64,000 bases of DNA from contig CAYTCJ010000002.1 in assembly GCA_964436545.1 (NCBI GenBank), forward strand, positions 110,738 through 174,737. The letters are read 5' to 3'. Below the pieces are notes generated by a model. That model was not told where the DNA came from, did not search any database, and worked only from the letters and a program-made list of their open reading frames with translations. Source of the DNA: an uncultured Candidatus Saccharibacteria bacterium (GTDB lineage: Bacteria > Patescibacteriota > Doudnabacteria > UBA920). Shown here in pieces: positions 3,220 through 60,810 of the stretch. A program made the position numbers and the translations under genes. The number at the start of each line of letters is the position of its first letter. Position 1 is the first letter of the stretch.

Positions 3220-3756
3220 TTATACTTGTTTAATAATTTTTCTAAACACTTCAGCTTCCAAACGCACTTTTTCCAAAGCATCGTAAGGATTTTTTTGTTT
3301 AAATTTAAAGTAATCAAAAAAAGTATTGGCCGTAGGCATTTTTTTTAAACCGAAATTTAAAGTAAAAATATAACCCAAAGTCCACAAATCCAAAACATGA
3401 GAATCGTAATCAAAGGCCACCAAAGCTTTTTTAAATGCCATTTTTAAAAATAACAAATTGGTTAAATTGTGGGTGGCCAATAAATACTGCTTGCCAAAAA
3501 CTTTATGAAATTGCTTAATGGCATCGTAAATTTTAGGACTTTTTTTTAAAGTTTCCGGAGGAATCCTTAAAAGTTTACTGTGTTCCCAAATTACATTATC
3601 CAAATAACTTACCCGCACATACGAATTAAAAAAACCTTTTTCCAAAAGATTATCTTTATCTAAAACAATGGCGGATAATTGTAAAATGTTATCCTTATCG
3701 GTATCGTTTCCGGTAGTAATTAATTCAAAAAATAAAATATCTTTAATAAATTTCAT
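3220..3756 (-). CDS. DnaQ-like exonuclease paralog with a degenerate catalytic motif I (FELITTGND instead of D-x-E)
   Basis: Same architecture and same C-terminal motif (YDALEKVRLEAEVF) as the neighbouring exonuclease. The Exo I acidic pair is replaced, so it may be catalytically inactive. Confidence 0.5.
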   Translation of the reverse strand: MKFIKDILFFELITTGNDTDKDNILQLSAIVLDKDNLLEKGFFNSYVRVSYLDNVIWEHSKLLRIPPETLKKSPKIYDAIKQFHKVFGKQYLLATHNLTNLLFLKMAFKKALVAFDYDSHVLDLWTLGYIFTLNFGLKKMPTANTFFDYFKFKQKNPYDALEKVRLEAEVFRKIIKQV

Positions 3757-4348: not shown

Positions 4349-4630
4349 TTAATTTTTTTGCTCCTGATTGCGCTTTTTTACCAAATAAGAAAACAGTTTT
4401 CCCGGAGTTTGAATATTTTTATTTTCCAAAACTTCTCCCATAATTTTTCTTAAATAGTCGTGATGATATCTCGTAGCCATACCCAAATACAAACCAAAAT
4501 GCCGACGATCGTTAAATTTTACCGACAACTCTTCCGCAAGCAAATGCGCAGGGGAATGCAAATGCCGGTTAGGTTTGGTGCGAGTGCTGACTTTGGATAA
4601 TTTTTTTGTAATTTTACCAAGGGCTTCCAT
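4349..4630 (-). CDS. Hypothetical basic protein (93 aa)
   Basis: ORF immediately upstream of def on the same strand. Lys/Arg-rich. No family recognised. Confidence 0.4.
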   Translation of the reverse strand: MEALGKITKKLSKVSTRTKPNRHLHSPAHLLAEELSVKFNDRRHFGLYLGMATRYHHDYLRKIMGEVLENKNIQTPGKLFSYLVKKRNQEQKN

Positions 4631-4934: not shown

Positions 4935-6269
4935 ATGCAACAAATTGACATTGCGGGCTTAAAACTTAATCAACTTAGCAAAACCGATTTGCTAACCAGG
5001 CTATTAAAAGAACTTCGGGCTAATCATTCCATTTGGCTTACCACCGTGTACTCGGAATTTTTATACGCTGGGCTCTGTGACCCAAAAATTATGGGGCTGT
5101 TAAACCAAGCTGATATTGCCATACCCGATGGCATAGCGATGTTTTGGGCAAAACGCTTTTTATACCTCCCGTTTACCGCCAAAACTTATTTGGGTAAAAT
5201 TTTTGAAGCTATTTGGCAAGCCGGCTATTCTTTATTGGCCATTATTTTTTACAAAAAATGGATCCTTTCCGCCTTGCCGGAAAAAATTGTGGGTGCAAAT
5301 TTAATTTGGGATTTAGCCAAACTGGCTAATGACAACCATTTATCCATTTACCTATTGGGTGGATTTGGCGACACTCCAGAACTTGTCAGAAAAAAACTTA
5401 CAACTTACAACTTAAAACTTAAAACTTATACCTCCAATAAACACCCAAGTGATACAACTATAATTAATGACATTAACCAAGCATCGCCCGACATTCTTCT
5501 GGTAGCTTATGGACCAATAAAACAAGAGCAGTGGATTTTAGAAAATCGTAATAAATTACCATCGGTTAAATTGGTGGTAGGGTTGGGTGGAACTTTTGAT
5601 TATCTGGCGGGCCGGCGCCTAAGTCCGCCTGAGTGGATAAGACGCGTAGGCCTAGAATGGCTTTTTCGGCTCATTACTCAACCCCACAGAATAACAAGAA
5701 TTTATAATGCCACGATAGGTTTAGTCAATTTATTAATTCATTATAAAGTTTTTACTTCACTACCCTTAAGACCCAATGTGGCAATTATTATTTTAAACAA
5801 TAAAAATCAAATCTTGCTTTGCGAACGAAATACCCATAACCACGAAGTGGATATTATCAGCACTCGCGAAGCCTTAACGCAAACCAACTATTGGCAATTA
5901 CCCCAAGGGGGGATTGATGCCCACGAAGACCTCGTTGGGGCTGCAAGACGGGAAGCCAGAGAAGAAACTTCACTTACTAATTTACAAGAGCTCTATATTT
6001 CTCCTCATACTCATACTTACTTTTGGAATAATGCTTTAAGAAATTTTAGGAAAAATAATCGCCACAAAAACCGCGGGCAAATTCAGAATCTGGTTTACTT
6101 GAAACATTTAGGACCAGACACGGAAGTTCAAATTGATAATCATGAATTTTCCAATTACCAATGGACGGACATAAATGCTTTAGACAAAACCATCCATCCG
6201 GAGCGAAAAACCCTTACAGCTATTGTGCTAAAAGATTTGAAAGAAATGCAAGAAAAAGGTATAATATAA
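4935..6269 (+). CDS. WecB/TagA/CpsF-family glycosyltransferase fused to a C-terminal NUDIX hydrolase domain
   Basis: The central region (VVGLGGTFDYLAGRRLSPPEWIRRVGLEWLFRL) matches the TagA/WecG fold family. The C-terminal part carries a NUDIX box (GGIDAHEDLVGAARREAREETSL). Confidence 0.7.
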   Translation: MQQIDIAGLKLNQLSKTDLLTRLLKELRANHSIWLTTVYSEFLYAGLCDPKIMGLLNQADIAIPDGIAMFWAKRFLYLPFTAKTYLGKIFEAIWQAGYSLLAIIFYKKWILSALPEKIVGANLIWDLAKLANDNHLSIYLLGGFGDTPELVRKKLTTYNLKLKTYTSNKHPSDTTIINDINQASPDILLVAYGPIKQEQWILENRNKLPSVKLVVGLGGTFDYLAGRRLSPPEWIRRVGLEWLFRLITQPHRITRIYNATIGLVNLLIHYKVFTSLPLRPNVAIIILNNKNQILLCERNTHNHEVDIISTREALTQTNYWQLPQGGIDAHEDLVGAARREAREETSLTNLQELYISPHTHTYFWNNALRNFRKNNRHKNRGQIQNLVYLKHLGPDTEVQIDNHEFSNYQWTDINALDKTIHPERKTLTAIVLKDLKEMQEKGII

Positions 6270-6732: not shown

Positions 6733-6759
6733 TTTCTCTAAATTCATAATTCATAATTC

Positions 6760-8265
6760 ATGATAAGAACTCGCTTTGCTCCCTCACCAACCGGCTTTGT
6801 TCATATTGGCTCCTTAAGAACGGCGCTGTTTTCTTTTTTGTTTGCCCGTCATCACCAAGGCACTTATGCCCTAAGAATTGAAGACACCGACCAAAACCGT
6901 TTTGTGGAAGGTTCGCTGGAAAATATGCTAAAAGTGTTTAGCCAAATGGGCATAAACTTTGATGAAGGCCCTTATCTGGAAAACGGCCACATTAAACAAA
7001 AAGGCGAGTTCGGCCCATATATTCAGTCGGAAAGAAAACACCAAGGTCTGTACCAAAAATATGCTAACGAGCTCCTTACTAACAAAAAAGCCTACTACTG
7101 TTTTTGCACCCCAGAACGTTTAGAGGAAATGCGCAAAGAGCAAACTGCCTTAAAAAAACCGCCTATGTACGACCGGCACTGTCGCCATTTACCCGAAGCT
7201 GAAATCCAACTCAAACTGCAAGAAATTCGCCAAGCAGGCAAAGAACCAGTAATCCGCTTTGCCATGCCCCTTACCGGCCAAACCGTCATTCACGATTTAA
7301 TTTACGGGGACATCACTTACGAAAATAAAATTTTAGATGACCAAGTGATTTTAAAATCCGACGGTTTTCCTACCTATCATTTAGCCGTGGTGGTAGATGA
7401 CCATCATATGCAAATTAGCCATGTTATTCGGGGCGAAGAATGGATCCCTTCCACACCCAAACATTTGCTAATTTATGAAGCATTAGGTTGGAAGCCCACT
7501 CAATTTGCACATTTGCCTTTAATTGTTAATGCCGACAAATCCAAGTTAAGCAAACGGCAAGGTGATGTCGCGGTAGAGGATTATATAAATAAAGGCTACT
7601 TGCCCGAAGCTTTAATTAATTTCATTGTCCTCTTGGGCTGGAATCCAAAAACCGAACAAGAACTCTTTTCCATTCAAGAATTAGTGGAACAATTCGACTT
7701 GGCCAAAATCAACAAATCGGGTGCGGTATTTGATTTAGTCAAACTTGATTGGATAAGCTCGCAATACTTACGTCGTTTAACCGGCCAAGACCTCGCTCAA
7801 AAACTTAAACCTTTCTGGCAACAAGCCGGAGTGGATGTAAGTAAATTTTCCGATGCCTACTTGGAAGCCATTGCCGAATTAGAAAAGGACCGGCTTAAAA
7901 AACTTTCCGAAATAGGGGAGAGGACACAATTTTTCTTTGCCCTACCCGAATACGAAGCCGAATTATTAGTCTGGAAAAAGGCCAATGCCCCCGACGCCAA
8001 AAATAAATTACTTGCCTTATGGGAATTATTTAAGCAAATGGATGAAAAATTATTGCCTACGCCCGCTAACGTTCAAACCGCTTTAGAAACTTTTATTACC
8101 CAAAATAATTTTGACAAGGGGAGTGTGCTATGGCCCTTAAGAGTGGCGTTAACCGGCAAAGAAAAATCTCCGCCACCTTTTGATGTGGCGAGTGTGTTAT
8201 CTTTGGGATTAGGAAAAACGGAAGTTTTAAACAGAATCCAAACAGCCATAAATAAGCTTAAATGA
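6760..8265 (+). CDS. gltX: Glutamyl-tRNA synthetase
   Basis: HIGH motif (APSPTGFVHIGSLRTALF), KLSKRQG (KMSKS), class I catalytic core. 501 aa. Confidence 0.9.
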   Translation: MIRTRFAPSPTGFVHIGSLRTALFSFLFARHHQGTYALRIEDTDQNRFVEGSLENMLKVFSQMGINFDEGPYLENGHIKQKGEFGPYIQSERKHQGLYQKYANELLTNKKAYYCFCTPERLEEMRKEQTALKKPPMYDRHCRHLPEAEIQLKLQEIRQAGKEPVIRFAMPLTGQTVIHDLIYGDITYENKILDDQVILKSDGFPTYHLAVVVDDHHMQISHVIRGEEWIPSTPKHLLIYEALGWKPTQFAHLPLIVNADKSKLSKRQGDVAVEDYINKGYLPEALINFIVLLGWNPKTEQELFSIQELVEQFDLAKINKSGAVFDLVKLDWISSQYLRRLTGQDLAQKLKPFWQQAGVDVSKFSDAYLEAIAELEKDRLKKLSEIGERTQFFFALPEYEAELLVWKKANAPDAKNKLLALWELFKQMDEKLLPTPANVQTALETFITQNNFDKGSVLWPLRVALTGKEKSPPPFDVASVLSLGLGKTEVLNRIQTAINKLK

Positions 8266-8270
8266 TCAAT

Positions 8271-8312
8271 AAAAATTTTACCCGGGAAAACCGGGTAAAA
8301 TTTTTATTTTTT
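8271..8312 (+). terminator. Rho-independent terminator after gltX (AAAATTTTACCCGG-gaaaa-CCGGGTAAAATTTT + T-run)
   Basis: Perfect 14-bp stem, 5-nt loop and a T-tract directly after the gltX stop. Confidence 0.7.
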
Positions 8313-9645: not shown

Positions 9646-10560
9646 ATGACTCAAACCACATTTAAATTTATCTGCTTGGCGTTGTTATTTTTTTACAGTT
9701 TTACTCCGCCGGTCCTCGCCCAAACCCATGTGGGTAGCACGTATAGTGGCCCCGAAGCTCAAATTAAACAGTTTCTTTGCACCCCTTCGGATGCCAGCAC
9801 TAATGGCGGTAAAGCGAATAATGACTTATACAACTGTATTAATCGCATCTACCGCTTTGCCTTAGTCACAGCTGCTTTTTTTGCTGTCTTTATGATTGTC
9901 TTAGGTGGCTGGGTATATATGTCAGCCGAAGGCAACGAAGAATCGGTAACTAAAGCTAAAGATATTTTAGTTACCAGCATTGCTTCCATTGTAATTCTTT
10001 CCAGTGGCTATGTCCTCTTAAAATTTATCAATCCCGACTTAATTCAATTCCAACCCATTCAACCGCCCAGCGTGGTGGGGGTGGAGAGAGGGTATAGTTT
10101 TGCCAACTTAGTAAGCGGGGGACTAGGTAGCGGAGGTGGCAGTGGGGGTGGAAGTAGTGGTGGCAGGAGCGTTCAAAATTATATTTTAGCTGGTTATAAT
10201 ATTGGTCCATATGCCACCAGTCCTAATCATGAAATTGTCGTTTCTAATATTTATCGTAACTTAGGAAGTTACAATTTTTCCTCTGCCACCATAATCGATC
10301 AATACATGAAAAAAATCAGACCCAATACTCCACTTACTGGTCAAATGATTATAAATTCGGCAAGTAAATACTCCATAGATGCCAAATTATTAGTCGCTTT
10401 AATGCAAGCCGATAGCGCCTTAGGCACAGAGGGTTTAGGTAAAAATACCAATAACCCCGGCAATGTTGGAAATACTGATGACGGTAGTATTAGACGTTTT
10501 CCTGATTGGCAAAGTGGAGTTAACGCGGTGGCCGAATGGCTATCTAGACACCGAGCATAG
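9646..10560 (+). CDS. Secreted two-TM module protein with a Gly/Ser linker and a C-terminal GH73-like (glucosaminidase/lysozyme-like) domain
   Basis: Signal peptide, then a 129-aa module with two hydrophobic helices, then a GGLGSGGGSGGGSSGG linker. The C-terminus (LVALMQADSALGTEGLGKNTNNPGNVGN) resembles GH73/FlgJ-type muramidases. The assignment is by motif only. Confidence 0.55.
   Translation: MTQTTFKFICLALLFFYSFTPPVLAQTHVGSTYSGPEAQIKQFLCTPSDASTNGGKANNDLYNCINRIYRFALVTAAFFAVFMIVLGGWVYMSAEGNEESVTKAKDILVTSIASIVILSSGYVLLKFINPDLIQFQPIQPPSVVGVERGYSFANLVSGGLGSGGGSGGGSSGGRSVQNYILAGYNIGPYATSPNHEIVVSNIYRNLGSYNFSSATIIDQYMKKIRPNTPLTGQMIINSASKYSIDAKLLVALMQADSALGTEGLGKNTNNPGNVGNTDDGSIRRFPDWQSGVNAVAEWLSRHRA
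9710..10097 (+). repeat. Copy 1 of a 388-bp direct repeat, 100% identical to 11068-11455
   Basis: Nucleotide-for-nucleotide identity from GGTCCTCGCCCAAACCC through GGGTATAGTTTTG. It encodes an identical 129-aa module in two adjacent genes. Confidence 0.9.
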
Positions 10561-14605: not shown

Positions 14606-14695
14606 TTTATCTTATCCACTAATTCACGAATCAACACAAATTTCACTAAACCGATATTCGTGTCATTCGTGCTATTAGTGCATTAGTGGACAATT

Positions 14696-14980: not shown

Positions 14981-15002
14981 TACTTAAAAGTCAGTCTACT
15001 TT

Positions 15003-15040
15003 TAAAACACCGCTTCAATAAATATTGAAGCGGTGTTTTA
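15003..15040. terminator. Bidirectional intrinsic terminator between convergent rpmA and the 193-aa gene
   Basis: AAAACACCGCTTCAATA-aat-ATTGAAGCGGTGTTTT is a perfect stem with A/T runs on both sides. Confidence 0.7.
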
Positions 15041-19918: not shown

Positions 19919-20596
19919 TTACAATTTATACTTTCCCTTTTCTTGCTCCATGGTGATTTTACCATTTTCTAAAGTAATTACCCGTCTCTGAATTTTATTA
20001 ACCAAATCCGCAGCATGAGTGGCTAATAACACGGTAGTGCCTAACCGATTGATTTTTAAAAGTAATTCCAAAATTTCATTCGCATTGACTTCATCTAAAT
20101 TTCCCGTAGGTTCATCGGCCAACAATAACACCGGTCTATGAGCCAAAGCGCGGGCAATGGCCACGCGTTGTTTTTCTCCACCCGACATTTCATTGGGAAA
20201 ATTATTGCGCTTATGCACCAAACCCACCAAATCTAAAATTTTAGGCACATCTTGCTGAATTTTTTCATTCTCATAGCCACACACTTCCATAGCAAAGGCA
20301 ATGTTTTCAAAAGCCGTTCTCCTAGGTAGGAGTTTAATGTCTTGAAACACAAACCCGATTTTCCTGCGTAAAAAAGGAATATCACTTTCTTCCACGGTCT
20401 TTAAATCGATTCCGTCAATTAATATTTTACCTTCATCGGCTTTTTCTTCGCCAATAATTAACTTTAAAAAAGTGGATTTACCCGCCCCCGAAAGCCCAAC
20501 CATGGAAATAAATTCACCTTGGTTAATTTCCATATTTAACTTATCTAAAGCTTTGGTGGGACCGTAGTATTTAGTGACATTAATAAATTTAATCAT
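19919..20596 (-). CDS. ftsE: Cell-division ABC transporter ATPase FtsE
   Basis: Walker A GLSGAGKST, ABC signature LSGGEKQRVAIARAL, Walker B LLLADEPTGNLD. 225 aa. Confidence 0.85.
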   Translation of the reverse strand: MIKFINVTKYYGPTKALDKLNMEINQGEFISMVGLSGAGKSTFLKLIIGEEKADEGKILIDGIDLKTVEESDIPFLRRKIGFVFQDIKLLPRRTAFENIAFAMEVCGYENEKIQQDVPKILDLVGLVHKRNNFPNEMSGGEKQRVAIARALAHRPVLLLADEPTGNLDEVNANEILELLLKINRLGTTVLLATHAADLVNKIQRRVITLENGKITMEQEKGKYKL

Positions 20597-20720
20597 AAAT
20601 CACAGATTCACCGATTAGCACTGATTACACAGATGTAAAACATTAATCTTTAACCAAATAAATTATACCAGATTTAAATACTTAATAACAGAAAAAAGTA
20701 TTTTTTGATAAATATATGTG

Positions 20721-21821
20721 TTATCTGTTTATATTCTGTGAATCTGTGGTCATCTCTAAATATTTTTCCACAAATTCCCCTAACTCACCGTCTAAAACAG
20801 CATCGGGATTGGTAGATTCAAATTCAGTGCGATGATCTTTAACCAACTTATACGGATGAATCACATAACTTCGAATTTGATTGCCCCATTCCGCACTTTT
20901 AAACTCCCCGCGTAATTCTTGTTTTTCTTTTTGCAATTTTTCCTCTTCCAAAGCTTTGAGCTTAGCCATTAAAATTTTCATTGCCACTTGACGATTTTGG
21001 TGTTGACTTCTTTCGTTTTGAATGGAAACCTTAATACCGGTAGGGATATGCGTAATCCGAATGGCACTATAAGTGGTATTTACGCTTTGTCCCCCATGAC
21101 CGCTGGCAGTATTGGCTTCAATTTTTAAATCTTTTTCGTCAATTTTTAATTCTTCCTTTTCTTCTAAAAGGGGGAGTAATTCTAACAGCGCAAAACTGGT
21201 TTCGCGAGTATGCGCCGGATTAAAGGGACTTAAACGCACCAAACGGTGCACTCCGGCTTCGCTTTTAAACAAGCCGTAAGCATACGGGCCTTTTACCTCT
21301 ACCACCGCGGTTTTTACTCCGCCTTGCTCGCCCTTAGCCAATTCCAAAATTTCCGTACTAAAACCTTGTTTTTCCGCATACCTTAAAAACATTCTAAGGA
21401 GCATGCTGGCCCAATCCTGCGCATCCACTCCCCCGGCTCCGCTGTGAATGGAAAATATGGCGTTATGATCATCGTATTTTTTACTCAAGAGTGCCACAAA
21501 CCGATTTTTTTTGTATCTTGCTTCTAATTCATCAATTTGCTGTTTTATGTAATCCAAATCCGTGTGCTCAGATCCGCGTAGCAAATCCGCAACCAGATCC
21601 GCCTCACTCTCAAGCGCGATCCAGAAATCATAAAATTTTTTCAACTGATTATACTCCTGACTCACTTTTTGCGCGTGCTGATTATCTTGCCAAAAATCCG
21701 CCGATTGCATCGCATCTTCCAATTCTAAAAGCCGTTGCTCTTTTTGGGGCAAATTTAAGTGAGATTTCAAATTTAAAATTTCAGATTTAAGCTTGTCTAA
21801 ACGTTTGATTAATTCGTTCAC
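20721..21821 (-). CDS. prfB: Peptide chain release factor 2, encoded in a single frame (no programmed +1 frameshift)
   Basis: SPF motif (RLSPFN) and GGQ motif (GHGGQSVNTT). 366 aa continuous. Confidence 0.85.
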   Translation of the reverse strand: MNELIKRLDKLKSEILNLKSHLNLPQKEQRLLELEDAMQSADFWQDNQHAQKVSQEYNQLKKFYDFWIALESEADLVADLLRGSEHTDLDYIKQQIDELEARYKKNRFVALLSKKYDDHNAIFSIHSGAGGVDAQDWASMLLRMFLRYAEKQGFSTEILELAKGEQGGVKTAVVEVKGPYAYGLFKSEAGVHRLVRLSPFNPAHTRETSFALLELLPLLEEKEELKIDEKDLKIEANTASGHGGQSVNTTYSAIRITHIPTGIKVSIQNERSQHQNRQVAMKILMAKLKALEEEKLQKEKQELRGEFKSAEWGNQIRSYVIHPYKLVKDHRTEFESTNPDAVLDGELGEFVEKYLEMTTDSQNINR

Positions 21822-26891: not shown

Positions 26892-27035
26892 ATTTGTCCC
26901 TATAAATAAACCATATCCTTAAACCACATAGAACTCCTTTTTGTCCTTACTATGTCATTGTAATCCAATTATACCATAAATTGACTAACATTAAATATCC
27001 AGTTATGATGAATTTATGAGAATTATCATGAATTT

Positions 27036-27641
27036 ATGAAAAAAAATAGAGACTTGGAATTACTATATGAACTGGGTGCTTTACGGTTTATTCCACGAGC
27101 TTGGAAGCAGTTTTTTAATGCGGATTTTGAAAATTTAGCCGAACATCATTTCCGGGTGGCGTGGCTGGGAATGCTCTTGGCCAAAATGGAAAAACGAGGC
27201 GATGCCGGCAAAATTGTCCAAATGGCTTTAGTTCACGACATTGCGGAAAGTCGCACCGGCGATGCTCATGCCATTTCTCGGCAATACGTTAAACGTAACG
27301 AGCACTTGGGTGCCATGGATATGTTAAAAGACACACTTTTAGAACAAGATATGCTAAACCTGTGGCAAGAATACGAAGATCGCCACACTATTGAAGCCAA
27401 AATTGTTAAAGACGCCGATTGGTTAGATGTCGATTTGGAAATTAAAGAACAGTTAGCCAGAGGCCATGCGTCTTTAAGAGTGTGGATGCCCCAAAGAAAA
27501 TTGGTTTACGACAAATTTAATACCGCCTCAGCCAAAAAGCTCTTTAAGCTTATCCACCAATCCGACCCGTTTGATTGGCTCCTTCATGCCCGTTCGCGCT
27601 TTACCGAAGGCGATATGAAACCAAAACCAAACAAGAATTAA
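27036..27641 (+). CDS. HD-domain phosphohydrolase (YfbR-like 5'-deoxynucleotidase candidate)
   Basis: HD motif region HHFRVAWLGMLLA ... VHDIAESRTGD. 201 aa. Confidence 0.65.
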   Translation: MKKNRDLELLYELGALRFIPRAWKQFFNADFENLAEHHFRVAWLGMLLAKMEKRGDAGKIVQMALVHDIAESRTGDAHAISRQYVKRNEHLGAMDMLKDTLLEQDMLNLWQEYEDRHTIEAKIVKDADWLDVDLEIKEQLARGHASLRVWMPQRKLVYDKFNTASAKKLFKLIHQSDPFDWLLHARSRFTEGDMKPKPNKN

Positions 27642-27669
27642 GAAGTATGAATTAAGCATTAAGATAAAT

Positions 27670-28362: not shown

Positions 28363-28419
28363 TTTTTATTTGTATTATTTGCATCATTCGCATTAATTAG
28401 CATATTAGCATCGAGTATT

Positions 28420-31945: not shown

Positions 31946-32168
31946 AATTTTTTAATCCCCCCTCTTAGGGTAAGAGGGGGCTAGGGGGTGATATTGTTTA
32001 ATTCCAACCCTAAAATAATACACGAAAAAACCTTTCTTGACAAAATTTTCTCTGTGGATTAAAATAACCTAAATTATGAAATTCCAAAACCTTTCCAGCA
32101 TTATTAGCATTATTATTCCTCGCTTCAGGCAGTGGAAGAGTTTTTAATGCTTTAAATTAAATTCTCTG

Positions 32169-34325: not shown

Positions 34326-34475
34326 CCACTTGTCATTCCGGACTTGATCCGGAATCTATTTTATGGACTCTGAAATAAATTCAGAGTGACAAAGGAGACT
34401 TAGTGGTTTACGATCTTAATGATCTCCCACAAATTAATTAATAAAATTTTAAACTAAAAAAATTTACAAACTCTT

Positions 34476-35200: not shown

Positions 35201-35247
35201 TGCATTTCATTTTTGTCATTCTTGTTCATTTTTTTGATTTTTGTCAT

Positions 35248-35670
35248 TTAATTAACTACCTCTACTCCCATACTTCTGGCGGTACCCGCCACAATTCTTT
35301 CCGCAGCCGAAATATCATTGGCGTTTAAATCAGGCATTTTCTTTTCGGCAATTTCCGTAATTTGCTTTTTGGTAATCTTGCCCACTTTATTGGCTAAAGG
35401 GTTAGCGCTCCCTTTGGGTATGCCAATAGCCTTCATAATTAAATTCGCCACTGGCGGAGTTTTTAAAATAAAACTAAAAGACCTGTCTTCGTAAATGGTC
35501 ATTTCCACCGGAGTAAGCATATCCCCGCCTTGAGTCTTATCGTTAAATTCCTTAACAAATTGTGCAATGTTCACACCGTGGGGCCCAAGGGCGGTACCCA
35601 CTGGTGGGGCTGGAGTTGCTTTACCGGCCGGAAGCTGTAATTTTAATACTGTCTTAATTTTCTTTGCCAT
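35248..35670 (-). CDS. rplK: Ribosomal protein L11
   Basis: [35 protein letters not shown] is the L11 signature. 140 aa. Confidence 0.9.
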
Positions 35671-35869
35671 AAATTTCCTTAAATTCGAAATTCTAAACCC
35701 GAAATTCGAAACAATACTAATAATTAAAATCTAAATTTCATAATTTTAGAAGCGAAATTATGAAATTAACTTACACTAATCACTAATTGGCACTAATACA
35801 CAGATTATCTTACTCAGTTGGGTGTTAAGAAAATCATCTGTGTATTGGTGGTATCTGTGTTCTGTGAAA
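35671..35869 (-). promoter_or_regulatory. rplK 5' leader region containing CACAGAT/ATCTGTG inverted heptamers and GAAATTCGAAA tandem units
   Basis: On the gene strand: CACAGAACACAGATACCACCAATACACAGAT...ATCTGTGTATTAGTGCCAATTAGTGATTAGTG...AATTTCGGGTTTAGAATTTCGAATTT. A possible L1/L11 autoregulatory leader. Function not established. Confidence 0.35.
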
Positions 35870-43334: not shown

Positions 43335-43451
43335 TTAAGAAAAATTAAAATGTAAAACTCAAAGTATAAACTGACAAATAAAAATTCAAAATGATTATTG
43401 CAATTTTTACTTTTGCAGTGTCATTTTGATTTTTGATTTTTAAATTTTGAT

Positions 43452-45134
43452 TTATTGAAGAAAACTTATTAACTCATTTATTTTTATAAGTTGAGTTTCA
43501 CTTAATGCTCTTTTCTTTACCTCCACACTCTCCTTCTCTAAGGTTTTTGAGCTTACCACGATTCTGTAAGGAATACCAATTAAATCACTGTCGGCAAATT
43601 TTACTCCGGCGCTTAATTCCCGGTCATCATATAATACCTCAATTCCGTCTCTAAGCAAAGTCTCATACAAATTTTCCGCCACCTGTTCTGTGCCTTTTAA
43701 GGCAATTAAATGCACGGTAAACGGCGCAACCGCCGGTGGCCAAATTATCCCTTTGGCATCGTGAAATTTTTCCACCACCGCTGCCATAGTCCTACCCACG
43801 CCAATGCCATAACAACCCATATAAAAGGGCTTAGCTTCGCCATCTTCGTCTCTAAAATTTGCCCCTTTCATTAATTGGGTATAATGGTAGCCAAGTTGAA
43901 AAATATTCCCTACCTCAATCCCGCGCTTTTCTTCCAAAGGTTTATTATTAACCGAAATAAACCCCGCTTTCACTAAAGCAATATCGCCAATTATATCCGG
44001 CTCATAATCTCTGTGAAGATTAACATTTAACAAATCACAATGTTGTTTATTGGCCCCGCCATACATATTTTTAACAGTTGCCAAAGAATCATCAGCCACA
44101 ATAATTAAATCTGGATGCTTAATTTTTACGGGTGATAAGAATCCGGGCTCAGAGTTTAAGTTTTGCCTGATTTCTTCATCTGTGGCATGTCTTAACTCAA
44201 CAGATTTTATTAGACTTTTTAACTTTACTTCATTAACCTCAAAATCCCCCCGAATAATTGCCAAAATAAACCGTTTTTTTTCATCTACATACAAAACATC
44301 TTTAATTTGTCGCCACAAAGGCAACTTATGAAACTTAACGCCGTCCTCCATAGTCTTACCTCTTACTGCCTCCACTTCCACCAATGCTTGTTCGGGTTCA
44401 TTTAAATTCATATCGGCTTTTATAAATTTTGCCACGTCTTCGTGAGCGCTGTAAACACCGTCGGTAAAAAATTTGGTTTCGCCAATGGGCGATTCCACTA
44501 CAAACTCATGACAATATTCCCCGCCAATATAACCATTATCGCTTTCCACCACTAAAGTCTCCAAGCCCAAGCGCTGAAAAATTCGAGTATAAACCTGTTT
44601 AAGTTTTTCGTATTCCAGTTTAAAATCCTCTTCGTTTTTATGAAAAGAATAACCATCTTTCATAATAAACTCCCTTACCCTTAAAAGTCCGCCTCTGGCC
44701 CGAAGTTCGTCTCTAAATTTAGTGGAGAATTGATACAAATGAAAAGGCAAATCTTTATAACTGAGTTGATATTTACGCACTAAATCCACAAACATTTCTT
44801 CCGCTGTCCCGCCTAAGGCAAACTCACTCTCCCTGCGGTCTTTAACTTTCATTAACTCAAAACCCGTAGTGCTGGTCCGGTTGGTTTCTTGCCACAATTC
44901 CAAAGGATGCAAAATTGGGGCCGACATTTCTTGGGCTCCGGCCCTATCCATTTCTTCCTTAATAATTGCCATAATTTTTTGCTGAACTCTATAGCCGACA
45001 GGTAAAAAATAATACCTGCCCGCTACCGACTCGGCAATGAACCCCGCCTGCTTTAAAAGCTTGGAAGAAATAATTTTTAAATCTTCCTCGGAAAAGGTTT
45101 TACTGGTTTTCAAAAAATATTTACTTTGTCTCAT
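43452..45134 (-). CDS. proS: Prolyl-tRNA synthetase (class II)
   Basis: Class II motifs and ProRS anticodon-binding C-terminal region. 560 aa. Confidence 0.85.
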   Translation of the reverse strand: MRQSKYFLKTSKTFSEEDLKIISSKLLKQAGFIAESVAGRYYFLPVGYRVQQKIMAIIKEEMDRAGAQEMSAPILHPLELWQETNRTSTTGFELMKVKDRRESEFALGGTAEEMFVDLVRKYQLSYKDLPFHLYQFSTKFRDELRARGGLLRVREFIMKDGYSFHKNEEDFKLEYEKLKQVYTRIFQRLGLETLVVESDNGYIGGEYCHEFVVESPIGETKFFTDGVYSAHEDVAKFIKADMNLNEPEQALVEVEAVRGKTMEDGVKFHKLPLWRQIKDVLYVDEKKRFILAIIRGDFEVNEVKLKSLIKSVELRHATDEEIRQNLNSEPGFLSPVKIKHPDLIIVADDSLATVKNMYGGANKQHCDLLNVNLHRDYEPDIIGDIALVKAGFISVNNKPLEEKRGIEVGNIFQLGYHYTQLMKGANFRDEDGEAKPFYMGCYGIGVGRTMAAVVEKFHDAKGIIWPPAVAPFTVHLIALKGTEQVAENLYETLLRDGIEVLYDDRELSAGVKFADSDLIGIPYRIVVSSKTLEKESVEVKKRALSETQLIKINELISFLQ

Positions 45135-45208
45135 AAATCACAGATTAATGCACTGATTACGCAGATAACACAGACATATTATTGATAATCCTTTTAATTA
45201 AAACTTTT

Positions 45209-45538
45209 TTACTTTGTCTCAAACCGGTCTAAAATTGTATAAATTTCTGAAAGTTTTTGATTTAACACTCTACTTATTTCTGAGTTTGGTATAAAATCTT
45301 GCTCAAGTATATCACCCGCTTGTTTTTTATAAGCATCTATAGACGTAGCCTTCTCGATTTTACTTTTACCACCGGCAATTTTCATCATCCCCTTAAAATC
45401 TTCCACAGATACTTTTAACTGTTCCAAAATTGCGATATTTCTGGCACCTGCGAATCCTGCATGATAAGTCCTAGGCCGAAACGCTCTTAATTGAGCTAAT
45501 CTCGCTCCCTCACTTAATTCACCGGTTTCTAATGACAT
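45209..45538 (-). CDS. Hypothetical protein (109 aa)
   Basis: Clean ORF. No family recognised. Confidence 0.4.
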   Translation of the reverse strand: MSLETGELSEGARLAQLRAFRPRTYHAGFAGARNIAILEQLKVSVEDFKGMMKIAGGKSKIEKATSIDAYKKQAGDILEQDFIPNSEISRVLNQKLSEIYTILDRFETK

Positions 45539-45600
45539 AAAAAATCTTTAAATAATAAATTATTATTATTGCTATCTGCACTCATCTGTGTATCTGTGAA

Positions 45601-47792: not shown

Positions 47793-47945
47793 AACAATAT
47801 GATACTAATCTACAAATTATTACTAATAATGCAAATAATACTAATTTTGATCTTTTAAAATTCTCTATGCAGACCAATAAGCTCTTGTTTCGCGAGGTAT
47901 TCGTATAATTTGCATCATTCGCATGCATTAGTATATTAGTATCGC

Positions 47946-52594: not shown

Positions 52595-54133
52595 TTAGGC
52601 TAATTTTTGTTTCAACAGTTCATTAATTTTCTGCGGATTCCCCTTCCCTTTCAGCTCCTTCATAGTTTGTCCCACCAAAAACCCAAAACTTTTTTGCTCT
52701 CCGCCTTTATAATCCGAAACGGCTTTTGGATTATCTGTCATTACCTTATCAATTGCCAATGCAATCACTGCATCATCACTTACTTGTTTTAAACCCAAAT
52801 CCTCCACAATGTTGGAAGGATCGCCACCTTTTTCAAACATTACTTTAAACACTTGTTTGCCGGCAGAACCGGAGATTTCACCGGTTTGAATCATTTTTAA
52901 AAGTTCGGCAAAATTTTCCGCATCCACTCGTGAATCCGCCGGGTTTAAAAGCTGTTGATTTAACAAAGCGCTAAATTCCCCCAAACACCAATTCACGGCT
53001 TGTTTGATAATTGCCTGTCTGCCTGTAGGGGAAGCCATTGGCTTCCCGTTTTCTGGGCGGGCAATGCCCGCCCCTACATCTACATTCATCCATTCATCAA
53101 CCTCACTCACTACATTTTCAAAAAAAGTTGCCATTTCTTTCCAAGCAATTAAATTTTCCACATCGGCCTTAGGCAAACCGTATTCATTTAAAAATCTCTG
53201 TCTTTTTTGTGCGGGCAACTCCGGCATTTTACTTTTAAGCTCGCCTAAATACTCTTGAGTAAAATGTAAAATCGGCAAGTCAGGATCCGGAAAATACCGG
53301 TAGTCATTTGCCTCTTCTTTGGTTCTTTGTTCTACGGTACAACCTTGTTTTTCATCCCACCCCATAGTTACTTGCTTAGGCATGCCACCGGACTTTAAAA
53401 TTTCTATTTGGCGGGCAATTTCGTAATCGATGGCATTTTGCGCAAACCGAAAAGAATTAATATTTTTTACTTCCACTTTATATTTAGGCAAAGTGGTTTC
53501 TCCGGGTTTTCTCACGGAAATACTGGGTTCACAGCGCATAATGCCTTTTTCCATATCACAAGACGAGGCACCTAAATACTTTACAATATTTTTTATTTCC
53601 GATAAAAACGCGTAAGCTTCCTCTCCACTACTTATTTCCGGCTCCGTAACAATTTCGAGTAGCGGAGTGCCGGCACGATTATAATCTACCAAAGAATACG
53701 GCAAACCTTCGGGGTGAATATTCTTTCCCGCATCTTCTTCCAAATGAGCACGGGTAATATTTACTCTTTTTACTTTCCCGTTGACTTCAATATCTAAAAA
53801 ACCACTCCTAGCAATTGGTTTATCAAATTGGGAAATTTGGTAGCCTTTAGGAAGGTCGGGATAAAAATAGTGCTTACGGTCAAACTTGCTCCACTCGTCT
53901 ATTTGGCAATTTAAAGCCAACCCCACCATAGCGCTAAGCCTGATGGCCTCTTTATTAGCCACAGGCAAAGTACCAGGCTGACCTGTGTTGACCTCGTCAA
54001 TATCTACATTCGGATCTGCTTGGTCCGGATTATTTGGCGCTATGCCAAACATCTTAGATTTTGTCGCAAGCTGAATGTGGATTTCAAAGCCAATAACTGG
54101 CTCATACTCGGTTGATGCTGGATATGTTTTCAT
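52595..54133 (-). CDS. gatB: Glu-tRNA(Gln)/Asp-tRNA(Asn) amidotransferase subunit B
   Basis: GatB N-terminal catalytic region (PVIGFEIHIQL) and C-terminal YqeY-like tail. 512 aa. Confidence 0.9.
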   Translation of the reverse strand: MKTYPASTEYEPVIGFEIHIQLATKSKMFGIAPNNPDQADPNVDIDEVNTGQPGTLPVANKEAIRLSAMVGLALNCQIDEWSKFDRKHYFYPDLPKGYQISQFDKPIARSGFLDIEVNGKVKRVNITRAHLEEDAGKNIHPEGLPYSLVDYNRAGTPLLEIVTEPEISSGEEAYAFLSEIKNIVKYLGASSCDMEKGIMRCEPSISVRKPGETTLPKYKVEVKNINSFRFAQNAIDYEIARQIEILKSGGMPKQVTMGWDEKQGCTVEQRTKEEANDYRYFPDPDLPILHFTQEYLGELKSKMPELPAQKRQRFLNEYGLPKADVENLIAWKEMATFFENVVSEVDEWMNVDVGAGIARPENGKPMASPTGRQAIIKQAVNWCLGEFSALLNQQLLNPADSRVDAENFAELLKMIQTGEISGSAGKQVFKVMFEKGGDPSNIVEDLGLKQVSDDAVIALAIDKVMTDNPKAVSDYKGGEQKSFGFLVGQTMKELKGKGNPQKINELLKQKLA

Positions 54134-54152
54134 AATTCATTATTCATACTTC

Positions 54153-55634
54153 TTAATTCATCTCCGGATGCTTTTTATGCCACGCGGTGACTTGCTGGTA
54201 AGCATAACCTAAATTAAATATGGTTTGCTCGCCCCACTGGGGGCCAATAATTTGGAGACCCACGGGCAATTCTATTTCTGCGCCATCGCTAGGTTTACCC
54301 ATTCCGCAAGGCACGGACACAGCCGGAAGTCCGGCTAAAGAAGAAGGAATATTTAATTGATCGGCAATATACCCAAACAAAGGATTATTTTTAGCATTCC
54401 CAATTTTTACCGCAACATTTGGACTAGCGGGACATACCAAAGCATCAACCTGTTTAAAGACTTCTGCAAATTCATTTACAATTAAGCGTCGCACTTTTTG
54501 TGCCCGTTTATAATACGCATCATAATAACCCGCGGACAATACGTACGTACCGGTAAGAATTCGGCGTTTAGCTTCGTCCCCAAAACCTTCGGCACGGCTT
54601 TTGGCATAAACTTCATAAAGATTTTTGGCTTCACGAGAGGAATGCCCATAACGAATCCCATCGTACCGCATTAAATTAGAAGAAACTTCACTGGGACAAA
54701 TTATGGCATAAACCAAAGAACCGTATTTCGTGTTAGGCAAACTCACTTCTGAAACTTTAGCGCCTAATTTTTCTAATTCCTTAACCGCGGTTAAGACTGC
54801 ATTTTTTACCCCCGGCTCCATACCTTCCACAAAATATTCTTTGGGAATTCCTAGTCTCAAACCTTGAATATCTGCTGTTAAATTTTGAGTATAAGTTGGC
54901 ACCGGCACATCACCGGTAGTAGAATCGTGAGTATCTTTGCCGGAAATAATTTCAGCTAATTTTGCCAAATCTTCCACCGAATAAGCCACAGCGCCCGGAC
55001 AATCCAAAGAACTACCCATGGCAATAATGCCGTTTCTGGACACCCGACCATAGGTAGGCTTCCAGCCACTAATCCCACAAAGTGAAGAAGGTTGCCTAAT
55101 GCTTCCACCGGTTTCGGTAGCGGTTGCCCAAGGTGCCAAACCTCCTGCCACAGCCGATGTAGAACCACCACTACTACCACCCGGAATTCTGCTAATATCC
55201 CACGGATTTTTGGAAGCTCCAAAAGCGGAAGTTTCCGTACTGCTCCCATGAGCAAATTCATCTAAATTGGTTTTACCCAATAACACGGCTTTTTGCTCTC
55301 TTATTTTTTTTGTAACTTGACCTTCATAAGGAGGTAAATAATTTTCTAAAATTTTACTGGCAGCTGTGGTTTTTACTCCTTTGGTTAAAAACAAATCTTT
55401 GGAAGCATAAGGGATTCCGCACAAAAAAGGGTTTTCTCCCCCGCTGGCCATATATTCATCGGCTTCTGTAGCCTGTTTTAAAGCTTCTGCTTCACAAACC
55501 GTAATAAAGGAATTCAACTCGGTATCGTATTTTCTCACGCGCGCTAAAAAATACTTCGTCAATTCCACAGAAGAAACTTTTTTCTCATCTAATAACTTTC
55601 GCAGTTCAGTGAGTGATAAATATTCAAAATTCAT
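54153..55634 (-). CDS. gatA: Glu-tRNA(Gln) amidotransferase subunit A (amidase signature)
   Basis: Amidase signature GGSSGGSTSAVAGG and Ser-cisSer-Lys triad context. 493 aa. Confidence 0.9.
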   Translation of the reverse strand: MNFEYLSLTELRKLLDEKKVSSVELTKYFLARVRKYDTELNSFITVCEAEALKQATEADEYMASGGENPFLCGIPYASKDLFLTKGVKTTAASKILENYLPPYEGQVTKKIREQKAVLLGKTNLDEFAHGSSTETSAFGASKNPWDISRIPGGSSGGSTSAVAGGLAPWATATETGGSIRQPSSLCGISGWKPTYGRVSRNGIIAMGSSLDCPGAVAYSVEDLAKLAEIISGKDTHDSTTGDVPVPTYTQNLTADIQGLRLGIPKEYFVEGMEPGVKNAVLTAVKELEKLGAKVSEVSLPNTKYGSLVYAIICPSEVSSNLMRYDGIRYGHSSREAKNLYEVYAKSRAEGFGDEAKRRILTGTYVLSAGYYDAYYKRAQKVRRLIVNEFAEVFKQVDALVCPASPNVAVKIGNAKNNPLFGYIADQLNIPSSLAGLPAVSVPCGMGKPSDGAEIELPVGLQIIGPQWGEQTIFNLGYAYQQVTAWHKKHPEMN

Positions 55635-55697
55635 AATTAGCGTTTAGCGTTTAGCGTTTAGCGTTTAGGCTAAATCCTAATCGCTACCGACTAAAAG

Positions 55698-58427: not shown

Positions 58428-58455
58428 TTTTTCCGATTAGGACATGAACCTTAAT

Positions 58456-59180: not shown

Positions 59181-59286
59181 TTGTTTCAAATTTCCTTATT
59201 TGCATTAAAATTATACCATAAAAAGTTAAACCGGCGAAACGCAGTAATGCGCTCCGCCGGTTGTTGCGTTTTCCTTCCTCCCCTTC

Positions 59287-59691
59287 CTAATGATCCTCCC
59301 TCTGCCACCAGTCCTGCATTTCTTCACTGCAAAGCTCGCAACGCAAAGTTACTTCAGTAACCCCGTACTGCTTGAGCTGTGTATCATCGATGTTAATGAC
59401 TCTCCACTGATGATCGCATTTGATCTTCTTGGGGAAATACGGAATGATAGTTTCATCTGGATGCACATGAGCGTACATACTTTCCTCTTTCTGATTGAAT
59501 TTTATTTTTTTGGCAACCCCGACGACCTTAGTGCCGGAGTAAAAACAAAAAACCCTTCCTCGCAAGGAAGGGGCTAAATTCATCTGCATCCTAAACTTGT
59601 TTACCCCGTAGCGAACCAAAGGTTCTGCTATTGGAGTTTCAGGATTTATTTTAGATGCTGAAATTAATTCAGCATGACAAGAAAAAATCAA
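59287..59691 (-). CDS. Hypothetical 134-aa protein with Cys pairs (CDHQW...CELCSEE), possible zinc ribbon
   Basis: Overlaps the upstream YerC-like gene by 4 nt (ATGA), implying co-translation. No family recognised. Confidence 0.4.
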   Translation of the reverse strand: MIFSCHAELISASKINPETPIAEPLVRYGVNKFRMQMNLAPSLRGRVFCFYSGTKVVGVAKKIKFNQKEESMYAHVHPDETIIPYFPKKIKCDHQWRVINIDDTQLKQYGVTEVTLRCELCSEEMQDWWQREDH

Positions 59692-60005: not shown

Positions 60006-60201
60006 ATCAATTCAATATTAGAAATTAGAAATTCTGAATATCACTTTACTTAAGTAAAGTATATCATATCCCCAAAATCTGTCAAGAAACTTTCACTAAA
60101 ATGTGCTATAATGTAAATAATGTGGTTAATTAATTATTAATTGTCATAGACAATACTTATTGCATCAGTGTAATCTGTGTTATCTGTGTATCTGTGAATA
60201 T

Positions 60202-60753: not shown

Positions 60754-60810
60754 TTAGTAGTGGGTAGCATTTAGCTAAACGCTAATCGCTAAACCCTAAA
60801 CGCTTTTACC

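Follow-up and report, generated by a model that had tools for sequence, protein, structure and literature searches.

Arrays of a degenerate heptamer, ATYNGYR, beside start and stop codons in a Doudnabacteria genome: a possible cis-acting element of the translation-initiation region

A 64,000-nt stretch of the genome of an uncultured Candidatus Saccharibacteria bacterium, placed by GTDB in the Doudnabacteria (assembly GCA_964436545.1, contig CAYTCJ010000002.1, positions 110,738 to 174,737; the whole stretch is referred to below as the window), carries at its gene boundaries arrays of a degenerate heptamer, ATYNGYR, of which ATCTGTG is the commonest form. The arrays are composite, with stereotyped spacers between the words, and we tentatively read them as acting in cis within the mRNA, either at the translation-initiation region or at the intercistronic junction. 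The first-pass annotation of the window had recorded ATCTGTG and its complement CACAGAT in leaders and 3' ends, and every heptamer sequence that it quoted is present where it was placed. Three mechanisms had been offered there (binding sites for a global regulator or RNA-binding protein, an enhancer of translation initiation independent of the Shine-Dalgarno (SD) sequence, and sense-antisense pairing between mRNA leaders and trailers), of which the sequence data alone single out none.

Results

ATCTGTG is one form of a degenerate word that occurs in arrays

Gene identities were assigned by NCBIfam and Pfam (FtsE, FtsX, RF2, ProRS, RseP, NusG, L11, LemA, HtpX, GatA, SecA, ThyA, L27, RRF and MreB). 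Counted on both strands, ATCTGTG has 20 matches in the window against 2.76 +/- 1.58 expected from 100 dinucleotide-preserving shuffles, and no shuffle (0/100) reaches 20. Fifteen of the 20 copies lie in eight clusters at gene boundaries, namely the ftsE, proS, lemA and clpC leaders, the nusG-rplK spacer (in both orientations) and the 3' ends of prfB and rseP (reversed); the five copies within genes stand alone and are at chance level. A non-random word family specific to gene boundaries, as had been described, is thus confirmed. The exact heptamer did not hold up as its unit. The clusters also contain ATCAGTG, ATCGGTG, ATCTGCG and ATCTGCA, and the words of other leaders include ATTAGTG, ATTCGTG, ATTAGCA, ATTCGCA and ATTTGCA; every one of these fits ATYNGYR, of which at least 15 variants were seen.

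Defining an array as three or more ATYNGYR words with gaps of at most 6 nt, we found 12 arrays of three to five words in the window against 0.04 expected from a first-order Markov model, all of them intergenic or non-coding (one was first scored as coding because the lemA open reading frame (ORF) had been overcalled from an upstream TTG). The density check on coding regions proposed in the first-pass annotation therefore lends no support to a compositional artefact. Word dimers are equally in excess, with 13 of the form W-N-W (0.69 expected) and 14 of the form W-NN-W (0.40 expected), counts that none of 100 shuffles reaches. The internal spacing is stereotyped: the five-word arrays (thyA, frr forward, frr reversed and L067a from a relative) share the pattern W-2-W-2-W-3-W-1-W, and the four-word arrays (ftsE, lemA, clpC, rpmA and the proS array of the relative L027) retain the final 1-nt spacer. 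A composite array measures about 34-43 nt and holds three to five words with spacers mostly of 2, 2, 3 and 1 nt; the spacers within one array range over 1-5 nt, so that word periods are 8-12. Two sub-types can be distinguished, one ending in GTG and the other in GYA. The arrays and the elements next to them are as follows.

14656-14688, plus strand: rpmA (L27) leader forward array, ATTCGTG-TC-ATTCGTG-CT-ATTAGTG-C-ATTAGTG; ends 7 nt before ATG; 3' arm of a stop-to-start hairpin
14617-14641, minus strand: reversed array of the methyltransferase gene, 11 nt past the stop codon; 5' arm of the rpmA spacer hairpin
20601-20634, minus strand: ftsE leader forward array, ATCTGTG-TA-ATCAGTG-CTA-ATCGGTG-A-ATCTGTG; ends 4 nt before ATG
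20597-20640, minus strand: ftsE leader in full, CATCTGTGTAATCAGTGCTAATCGGTGAATCTGTGATTT-ATG
20662-20670, minus strand: candidate extended -10 promoter of ftsE, TGGTATAAT, between the prfB reversed words and the forward array; conserved in L161, L168 and L169
20721-20760, plus strand: prfB 3' end, degenerate reversed words in the last ~12 codons; mRNA CACAGAT-T-CACAGAA-TATA-AACAGAT
28368-28410, plus strand: thyA leader forward array, five words, ATTTGTA-TT-ATTTGCA-TC-ATTCGCA-TTA-ATTAGCA-T-ATTAGCA; fills the leader; ends 9 nt before ATG
35774-35805, minus strand: rplK forward array, ATCTGTG-T-ATTAGTG-CCA-ATTAGTG-ATTAGTG; 3' arm of the nusG-rplK spacer hairpin; 103 nt before the rplK ATG
35836-35866, plus strand: nusG reversed array, ~3 nt past the nusG stop; mRNA CACAGAA-CACAGAT-AC-CACCAAT-A-CACAGAT; 5' arm of the nusG-rplK hairpin
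45139-45175, minus strand: proS leader forward array, GTCTGTG-TT-ATCTGCG-TA-ATCAGTG-CATTA-ATCTGTG; ends 4 nt before ATG
45135-45180, minus strand: proS leader in full, TATCTGCGTAATCAGTGCATTAATCTGTGATTT-ATG
45574-45598, plus strand: rseP reversed array, beginning 2 nt past the rseP stop; mRNA CACAGAT-A-CACAGAT-GAG-TGCAGAT
47803-47845, minus strand: frr (ribosome recycling factor) leader forward array, five words; ends 10 nt before ATG; conserved in L001
47899-47941, plus strand: reversed array after a 351-aa BNR-repeat gene, five words; begins 4 nt past the stop; pairs with the frr leader array
60164-60196, plus strand: lemA leader forward array, ATCAGTG-TA-ATCTGTG-TT-ATCTGTG-T-ATCTGTG; ends 5 nt before ATG; without a reversed partner; downstream of TGCTATAAT
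62491-62524, plus strand: clpC leader forward array, ATCTGTG-TA-ATCTGCA-TTA-ATCTGTG-C-ATCTGTG; ends 4 nt before ATG; downstream of TGGTTATAAT

Placement and polarity of the arrays

All eight forward arrays are in the sense orientation to the gene downstream, and since four of these genes are on the plus strand and four on the minus strand, array polarity follows transcription and not replication. Seven of the eight end 4-10 nt before the ATG (ftsE, proS and clpC 4, lemA 5, rpmA 7, thyA 9 and frr 10). Correspondingly, the four reversed arrays all begin 2-11 nt past the stop codon of the gene upstream (the methyltransferase, nusG, rseP and BNR-repeat genes), and a weaker fifth set of reversed words lies inside the 3' end of prfB. 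Here CACAGAT had been placed at the 3' end of the gene, which is correct for its presence, but the words fall within the last ~12 codons and are degenerate (CACAGAT, CACAGAA and AACAGAT). The C-terminal tail of RF2 that this repeat array encodes reads MTTDSQNINR before the stop in the window and LTADAQNKNR in locus L161 of a relative. Where two arrays form a pair, the order is always reversed-then-forward, and the unpaired arrays (thyA, lemA, clpC and L027 proS) are all sense. A looser scan for arrays gave apparent exceptions to this polarity which proved to be chance two-word matches or miscalled starts.

Extended -10 elements (TGnTATAAT) were identified at ftsE, lemA and clpC. The arrays lie downstream of each, as they do of the promoter in the Berkelbacteria locus L017, and so are transcribed as part of the 5' untranslated region. 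A scan for consensus -35/-10 promoters at ftsE found nothing, and the ftsE promoter is accordingly called from the extended -10 element. No intrinsic terminator was found in 20500-20900, the array hairpins being AT-rich and without a T-run; canonical terminators occur elsewhere in the window, for example at 8266-8310 and 14981-15037. A tRNA scan gave nothing at the arrays, and Rfam 15 gave no match at gathering thresholds; its six sub-threshold matches (E <= 1) overlap no array.

Translation signals of the host

Searches with ProRS, FtsE and HtpX identify the nearest relatives of this organism as metagenome-assembled genomes (MAGs) labelled Doudnabacteria, within the Patescibacteria. An SD-like tetramer (GGAG, GAGG or AGGA at -20 to -4) precedes only four of the 67 starts in the window, and none of the array-bearing leaders contains GGAG, GAGG or AGGA. 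The first-pass annotation had noted that the repeats sit where an SD sequence would be and that no such sequence is present. The position is as described, but with four of 67 starts having an SD-like tetramer the lack of an SD sequence is a property of the whole organism and not of the genes with arrays. About half of Parcubacteria are reported to have no anti-SD motif (PMC9297842); the window and the 174 loci fetched for comparison (designated L) contain no 16S or other rRNA gene. Of the 67 starts in the window, 49 have a T at position -1 and 34 have an A at position -4. In at least six genes (starts 148, plus strand; 4630, minus; 4935, plus; 13182, minus; 37147, minus; 55979, minus) the sequence TATAAT lies exactly 6-7 nt before the ATG, which is the geometry of leaderless mRNAs.

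Conservation and turnover among relatives

Close relatives were obtained by protein searches with FtsE and HtpX; a metagenome scan with ProRS gave no match above 70% identity. Among the relatives with long contigs, GCA_964522815 (R1; loci L001 and L161) is the nearest. A Logan contig from run SRR11567520 is identical to the window over htpX-clpC, and locus L294 represents the same organism.

Pooled identity at four-fold sites between the window and R1 is 0.50 (n = 1234), whereas the arrays are 93-95% identical. At ftsE, 32 of 34 array bases are identical in L161 against 47% of the four-fold sites of the gene. The thyA leader has 53 of 57 bases identical in L161, the changes falling at word positions 4 and 6, the proS leader has 69 of 74 identical in L001 (ProRS 88%), and the frr arrays are nearly identical in R1. 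Eight of the 11 independent substitutions in arrays are at word positions 4 and 6 and none is at positions 1, 2, 3 or 7; this distribution, set against 50% identity at four-fold sites, indicates that the arrays are under selection. After rseP, L001 retains three CACAGAT words with different spacers. At greater distance, the proS gene of the Doudnabacteria locus L027 (ProRS 63% identical) is preceded by ATCCGTG-TA-ATCAGTG-AT-ATCTGTG-T-ATCTGTG-GTAT-ATG, and the same array family with the same placement rule was found in L017 (Berkelbacteria), L054 (Roizmanbacteria), L067, L172, L173 and L296.

Conservation at orthologous leaders, which had been named as a check on the motif, was found in part: some arrays are kept far above the neutral level, but the pattern is patchy. 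The ftsE array is replaced in relatives at 89-90% FtsE identity and vestigial at 84%. The lemA array has decayed in L295 (94% HtpX identity) and is absent from L296 (92%), and the clpC array, identical in L294, is likewise absent from L296. Relatives carry arrays at other sites, at 0.6-1.9 per 10 kb.

Several individual loci may be described here. In the Roizmanbacteria MAG, L054 5530-5700, the region before rpsU (bS21) reads TACGGAT x3, a GC-rich hairpin, ATCCGCA-ATCCGTA-ATCAGTA, and then GGAGG and ATG. In L164, which belongs to the relatives with 89-90% FtsE identity, (GTTGTAA)x9 runs across the stop codon at the 3' end of prfB (4390-4470). Between rseP and proS the window has a 109-aa ORF with no Pfam match (45209-45538, minus strand), and L001 has in its place (2580-2990) a non-homologous PD-(D/E)XK nuclease gene (PF13366); in both genomes the conserved arrays, one reversed and one forward, flank this small gene as they would an exchangeable cassette.

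Predicted pairing between stop and start

In minimum free energy (MFE) folds the reversed arrays after prfB, nusG and rseP have as their pairing partners the forward arrays of the ftsE, rplK and proS leaders, respectively (z = -1.8 for prfB-3'/ftsE, -4.7 for the nusG/rplK spacer and -3.7 for the 475 nt from rseP to proS). The duplex predicted for the frr spacer is at -28 kcal/mol against -10 for shuffles (z = -5.3). In the clade, 42% of co-directional spacers fold with z < -2. When the stop arm and the start arm (35 nt each) were tested as a duplex, z was below -2 for 32% of spacers in the clade, 22% in other Patescibacteria and 14% in a control that is mixed and imperfect. Ten spacers were picked by hand because they had arrays or scored highly for hairpins, and in all ten the outermost helix runs from a base -2 to +14 nt from the stop to one 0-18 nt before the ATG. 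The hairpin of the methyltransferase-rpmA spacer is kept in four relatives, each with different words. Selection for unstructured leaders was considered and dropped, as forward arrays fold like shuffles.

Arrays in phage contigs

A scan of viral contigs for tandem ATCTGTG gave at least 120 matches, about the chance number by our own estimate; real arrays were recognized in three of the contigs (L221, L268 and L196). In L054, L221 and L268, which use SD sequences, a distance of 5-13 nt separates the end of the forward array from the GGAGG downstream, and this placement in relatives and phages indicates that arrays are always immediately 5' of the ribosome-binding region.

L221 (IMG/VR contig 3300031949_001619; GC 43%) belongs to a tailed phage, encodes terminase, portal and capsid proteins and has normal GGAGG sites. 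The gaps between the genes of its structural operon hold six arrays of ATCNGYG x3 in which the period is exactly 10 nt (3292-3363, 5640-5666, 7819-7890 and 9707-9733), four of them forming reversed-then-forward pairs and two standing alone. The placement rule is the same as in the window, just 5' of the ribosome-binding region and with the reversed partner after the previous stop.

Other word families and the CTAATCG word

When all intergenic regions of the window were read, many leaders were seen to be built of short words recurring every 7-10 nt. Self-matches of 5-mers in intergenic DNA number 88, 46 and 41 at lags 7, 8 and 9 against about 11.5 +/- 4.5, an excess of 4-8 times expectation, and coding DNA is flat. 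Other Patescibacteria loci, about 120 in number, show the short-lag excess as well (283 against 36 and 415 against 57). Words that do not fit ATYNGYR (AATTCAT, TTATGATGAAT, AAGAATT, TCATTTTTG, AAATTCG, TTTTGAT and TTCATAA) form 7-11-nt tandem repeats adjoining start codons, for example at 6741-6761, 27003-27039, 27633-27664, 35207-35249, 35681-35711, 43424-43458 and 54129-54161. A single wider core, AWYNG, was tried for all word families; it fits several arrays and fails the AATTCAT, GAATTT and AAATGA types. A further family is found in two places.

55635-55697, minus strand: gatC-gatA spacer, different word family with the same architecture, TAGCGATTAGG...(GCTAAAC)x4-GCTAATT-ATG; stop-to-start hairpin (z = -5.5)
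60754-60810, plus strand: htpX leader of GCTAAAC and GCTAATC words; 100% identical in L295

The htpX leader is the source of CTAATCG, which the first-pass annotation had taken for a sister word recurring in the leaders of ftsE, ftsX, secA, htpX and gatA. As an enriched word CTAATCG fails, with six copies (four of them intergenic) against 4.85 expected. The ftsX region has CTAATCA instead, and at gatA a copy is indeed present, but in the reversed arm.

The perfect tandem repeat of GCTAAAC in the gatA leader has four copies in the window and seven in L295 (5258-5352; 94% HtpX identity), a copy-number variation of the slippage type directly upstream of an essential gene. Near-perfect tandem repetition with variable copy number, by which slippage repeats are recognized, thus describes the GCTAAAC repeat and does not describe the ATYNGYR arrays.

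Discussion

The arrays as an element of the initiation region

We favour, if tentatively, an mRNA element of the initiation region, because the arrays adjoin start and stop codons, the unpaired ones are all sense, promoters lie upstream of them, spacers of variable length are tolerated, the host is SD-less, and in genomes that do use SD sequences the arrays precede these. A forward array, AUYNGYR on the mRNA and directly 5' of the start, would then be a cis element of the initiation region, most plausibly as a platform to which either a single-strand RNA-binding factor or the ribosome itself would bind. Recognition as a single strand would suit the arrays better than phased binding to duplex DNA since the spacers vary from 1 to 5 nt. 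Candidate partners, suggested by general considerations and by MacGregor (2015) and not by the present results, would be an S1-like multi-OB protein, a cold-shock-domain protein (footprint ~7 nt) or an exposed rRNA segment. A reversed array (YRCNRAU) right after the upstream stop may pair with the forward array and so fold the whole spacer into one closed hairpin domain in which stop and start are brought together. Initiation might then be coupled to termination upstream, the terminating ribosome melting the base of the stem; alternatively, the hairpin may mark an intercistronic site of processing or stability.

Several findings weigh against this interpretation. The forward array of rplK is an exception in lying far upstream of its ATG. 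As a reversed-then-forward pair is identical on both strands, only the few unpaired arrays (thyA, lemA, clpC and L027 proS) are informative as to strand. There is no RNA-specific wobble signature: mismatches in 39 intergenic hairpins comprise 42 that are G·U in the sense strand, 55 that are A·C in the sense strand and 173 transversions, so that G·U does not exceed A·C. The earlier idea of leader-trailer pairing has some support from the cis folds described above but none from this comparison. Nor do sense and antisense fold energies differ consistently; taken by themselves, forward arrays are no different from shuffles in their folding (z from -1.9 to +1.2), and for the prfB-ftsE fold the margin over shuffles is slight. 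Even close relatives differ by gains and losses of arrays, and this rapid turnover, with the missing wobble signature, favours the operator and dispersed-repeat explanations considered below. The exact 10-nt period in L221 would equally fit phased DNA binding. A scan of the window and of nine loci from clade relatives for cold-shock genes was negative, which at this partial coverage is uninformative. Finally, no more than about 12% of genes have arrays, and words that occur singly show no enrichment at starts (15 genes have a sense core and 10 an antisense core), which means that the arrays are neither a general initiation signal nor a universal ribosome-binding signal.

The arrays bear on the question of how translation starts on leadered and internal cistrons in the candidate phyla radiation, many members of which have lost the anti-SD. 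They offer a concrete, conserved and mutable element at the position of initiation, with a consensus (ATYNGYR spaced 2-2-3-1) and a clear polarity, and the question is made testable by natural presence/absence variants at orthologous genes and by the paired anti-array, which predicts stop-to-start hairpins. Should the arrays turn out to be an operator or a domesticated repeat, they would still be among the few defined regulatory or structural motifs common to several Patescibacteria classes and some phages.

Alternative explanations

A possible but rather doubtful alternative is that the arrays are operators for a DNA-binding protein that polymerizes on short direct or inverted repeats (a ribbon-helix-helix or similar repressor), the genes forming a regulon repressed either by roadblock or through loops that join the arrays on the two sides of a promoter. 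Arrays of 7-bp heptads (WATCACW), direct or inverted, are the sites of the omega repressor of inc18 plasmids, and MetJ binds tandem 8-bp boxes; binding is cooperative in both cases, and the operators overlap promoters and have uniform periods. These precedents, to which the arrays are similar in having units of 7-8 bp, direct and inverted arrangements and tolerance of degenerate positions, speak for an operator, as do the strand symmetry of the reversed-then-forward arrays with their absence of wobble bias, the -10 element flanked by the two ftsE arrays, the ATCNGYG words of L221, L268 and L196 (inverted sets of 3 + 3 words whose period of exactly 10 nt corresponds to one turn of the helix) and the constraint at word positions 1-3, 5 and 7 with 4 and 6 free, the pattern expected of base contacts. 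However, periods in the window vary from 8 to 12 bp within one array, which would put neighbouring sites on different faces of the helix. The arrays, unlike the omega (pSM19035) and MetJ operators, lie in transcribed leaders and adjoin start or stop codons; all identifiable promoters are upstream of them and none is overlapped, the unpaired arrays are all sense and next to the ATG, and the rpmA and thyA spacers consist of arrays only, so that a promoter would not fit in. Beside the arrays no gene for a candidate regulator was found, and the clpC promoter already carries an operator of its own, which is CIRCE-like.

Known operators and sites gave no match. As clpC, htpX and lemA are stress genes, the CIRCE/HrcA operator (TTAGCACTC-N9-GAGTGCTAA) was considered, and the arrays do not match it. 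The CtsR heptad (GGTCAAA), the DnaA box, the IHF site and MraZ boxes were checked by eye against the sequences and dropped; CRP half-sites, checked in the same way, have the wrong arrangement, and the dominant 9-nt period does not place the elemental-pause consensus (G-10/Y-1/G+1) in register. The CIRCE-like inverted repeat of clpC itself, TTAGCAGTC-N9-GAGTGATAA (62414-62440, plus strand), has 16 of 18 positions in common with the HrcA operator consensus, spans the -35 region and lies upstream of the -10; the site in the relative L296 matches at 17 of 18. This suggests HrcA control of clpC in this lineage.

It is also conceivable, though we are inclined to doubt it, that the arrays are a dispersed repeat family, comparable with REP/BIME, MITE or the cyanobacterial STRR heptamers, that has spread into gene boundaries by slippage, template switching or transposition, effects such as mRNA stabilization or RNase III processing being secondary or absent. 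The arrays do behave in part as a dispersed repeat, since the thyA and reversed frr arrays are ~84% identical copies. Consistent with this are the excess at lags 7-9 in all intergenic DNA, here and in other Patescibacteria loci, the many other word families with the same layout, the change in GCTAAAC copy number, the presence or absence of arrays at orthologous sites while each genome maintains its overall density, the different genes enclosed by the rseP and proS arrays, and the lack of wobble bias. Heptanucleotide repeats are given as the most abundant long simple repeats in prokaryotes by Mrazek (2007), as cited in PMC4679880. On the other side, neutral copies could not have stayed 93-95% identical while four-fold sites fell to 50%, nor would they confine substitutions to two word positions or persist at proS down to 63% ProRS identity, and the fixed 2-2-3-1 spacing and strict stop/start placement indicate function. 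The arrays share with long simple repeats and STRR heptamers the dominance of a period of ~7, a copy number that varies (in GCTAAAC) and the general lag-7 excess, but they differ in being imperfect, of fixed architecture and polarity, and conserved far above the neutral level.

The REP/BIME elements of Escherichia coli, the Correia/NEMIS elements of Neisseria and the intercistronic RNase III sites of phage T7 are co-transcribed palindromes that stabilize or process polycistronic mRNA. The resemblance is that the arrays too form imperfect inverted repeats in co-directional spacers, are transcribed as hairpins and are present or absent at orthologous sites. REP/BIME and Correia/NEMIS, however, have one conserved sequence per genome and arms that are not tandem words, whereas the arms here are word arrays, many of them unpaired, and the 3' arm adjoins the ATG. 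Within the 64 kb, pairs form inverted repeats and some copies are about 84% alike, and half of the arrays are unpaired. Neither flanking direct repeats indicative of target-site duplication nor a transposase gene was found near the arrays in the window, and a Y1 transposase gene in the relative L295 does not adjoin an array.

A bolder form of the mRNA interpretation, which on present evidence is unlikely, is that AUYNGYR 2-2-3-1 arrays are the mRNA half of a replacement recruitment system serving leadered and internal cistrons in Parcubacteria-type lineages that lack SD and anti-SD sequences. The array would be the docking site of an exposed rRNA segment or of a conserved multi-domain RNA-binding protein, and docking would be gated by the reversed array, initiation thereby depending on termination of the preceding gene (termination-reinitiation through the hairpin). 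In phages of other bacteria this platform would be in use ahead of an SD sequence.

Pairing in trans is less credible still. It would have CACAGAU fragments of 3' untranslated regions released as small RNAs that pair with the AUCUGUG leaders of ftsE, proS, lemA, clpC and rplK and so co-regulate them. The reversed arrays are in a 3' untranslated position right after stops, the same word occurs in five leaders and three trailers, and pairing in cis is energetically predicted; but each reversed array has a forward partner downstream in cis, so that action in trans is not needed, word position 4 is often mismatched between the arms, leaving only helices of 3 + 3 bp (L017), no terminator or processing signal defines a small RNA, and there is no wobble signature. 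Lastly, a compositional or chance artefact of an AT-rich genome deserves next to no credence: the five intragenic copies of ATCTGTG, the lack of enrichment of exact CTAATCG and the roughly chance frequency of tandem ATCTGTG in the viral collection would fit it, but the failure of all 100 dinucleotide shuffles to reach the observed counts, the 12 arrays against 0.04, their conservation in relatives and the position-specific substitutions refute it, enrichment and positional constraint together excluding any neutral or compositional origin.

Comparison with described systems

In the literature that could be searched, no description of ATCTGTG or ATYNGYR arrays or of leader repeats in Patescibacteria was found. 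The closest described precedent is the TAACTGA heptamer, found as direct repeats in marine Beggiatoaceae, some Cyanobacteria and Bacteroidetes (MacGregor, 2015; PMC4679880). Its sets of 2-6 copies are mostly intergenic, forward and a few nt upstream of starts, where they overlap the expected ribosome-binding site in spacers that rarely have a canonical SD sequence; they precede essential genes, including those for ribosomal proteins, and binding of S1, Csp or CsrA has been proposed. The TAACTGA word is exact and contiguous (period 7), related heptamers are said to be rare as repeats and only one inverted set has been reported (PMC4679880). Like these, the ATYNGYR arrays are direct repeats of a 7-nt unit, all of them intergenic, and seven are forward and close to the ATG in leaders without an SD sequence. 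They differ from TAACTGA, which is absent from the arrays, in being degenerate with non-zero spacers of 1-5 nt (mostly 2-2-3-1), in having reversed partners after upstream stops with predicted stop-to-start hairpins, and in occurring in a different phylum whose member here is largely SD-less.

The arrays resemble the SD sequence in lying immediately 5' of the start, with a tight distance to the ATG in the ATCTGTG subgroup (4, 4, 5 and 4 nt), but they have no GGAGG-like core, occur at a minority of genes and are upstream of a true SD sequence in SD-using relatives. As for other RNA-level systems, TRAP binds (G/U)AG repeats with 2-3-nt spacers, cold-shock domains have heptanucleotide sites, and the repeats of the tobacco mosaic virus omega leader are an SD-independent enhancer. 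Short words, short variable spacers and a 5' leader position beside the start are common to these and the arrays, and the unit of ~7 nt matches the footprint of a cold-shock domain; the motif itself differs from all of them.

Other features of the window

The leader of mreB (43335-43451, minus strand; 117 nt, in the proS-mreB spacer) is identical to L001 at 112 of 117 positions, with four-fold sites at 32-61%. It has ATCAAAA repeats and a predicted closed hairpin domain, gives no Rfam match and is possibly a structured leader or small RNA. Divergent from lemA is a 105-aa ORF (59688-60005, minus strand), where L295 and L296 have a gene of the Trp-repressor family (PF01371). The family assignment is that of the genes in the two relatives, both of which keep the divergent arrangement with lemA, and no evidence linking the ORF at 59688-60005 to the arrays was found. 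GC-rich palindromes, such as CCCCCTCTTAGGGTAAGAGGGGG, TGTCATTCCGGACTTGATCCGGAATC and TCCCTCTCTTTTCCAAAGAGAGGGTTAGGGTGAG, are present in AT-rich spacers at 2402-2513, 31946-32000, 34326-34365 and 58428-59286; these elements resemble the REP-like repeats of many uncultivated bacteria.

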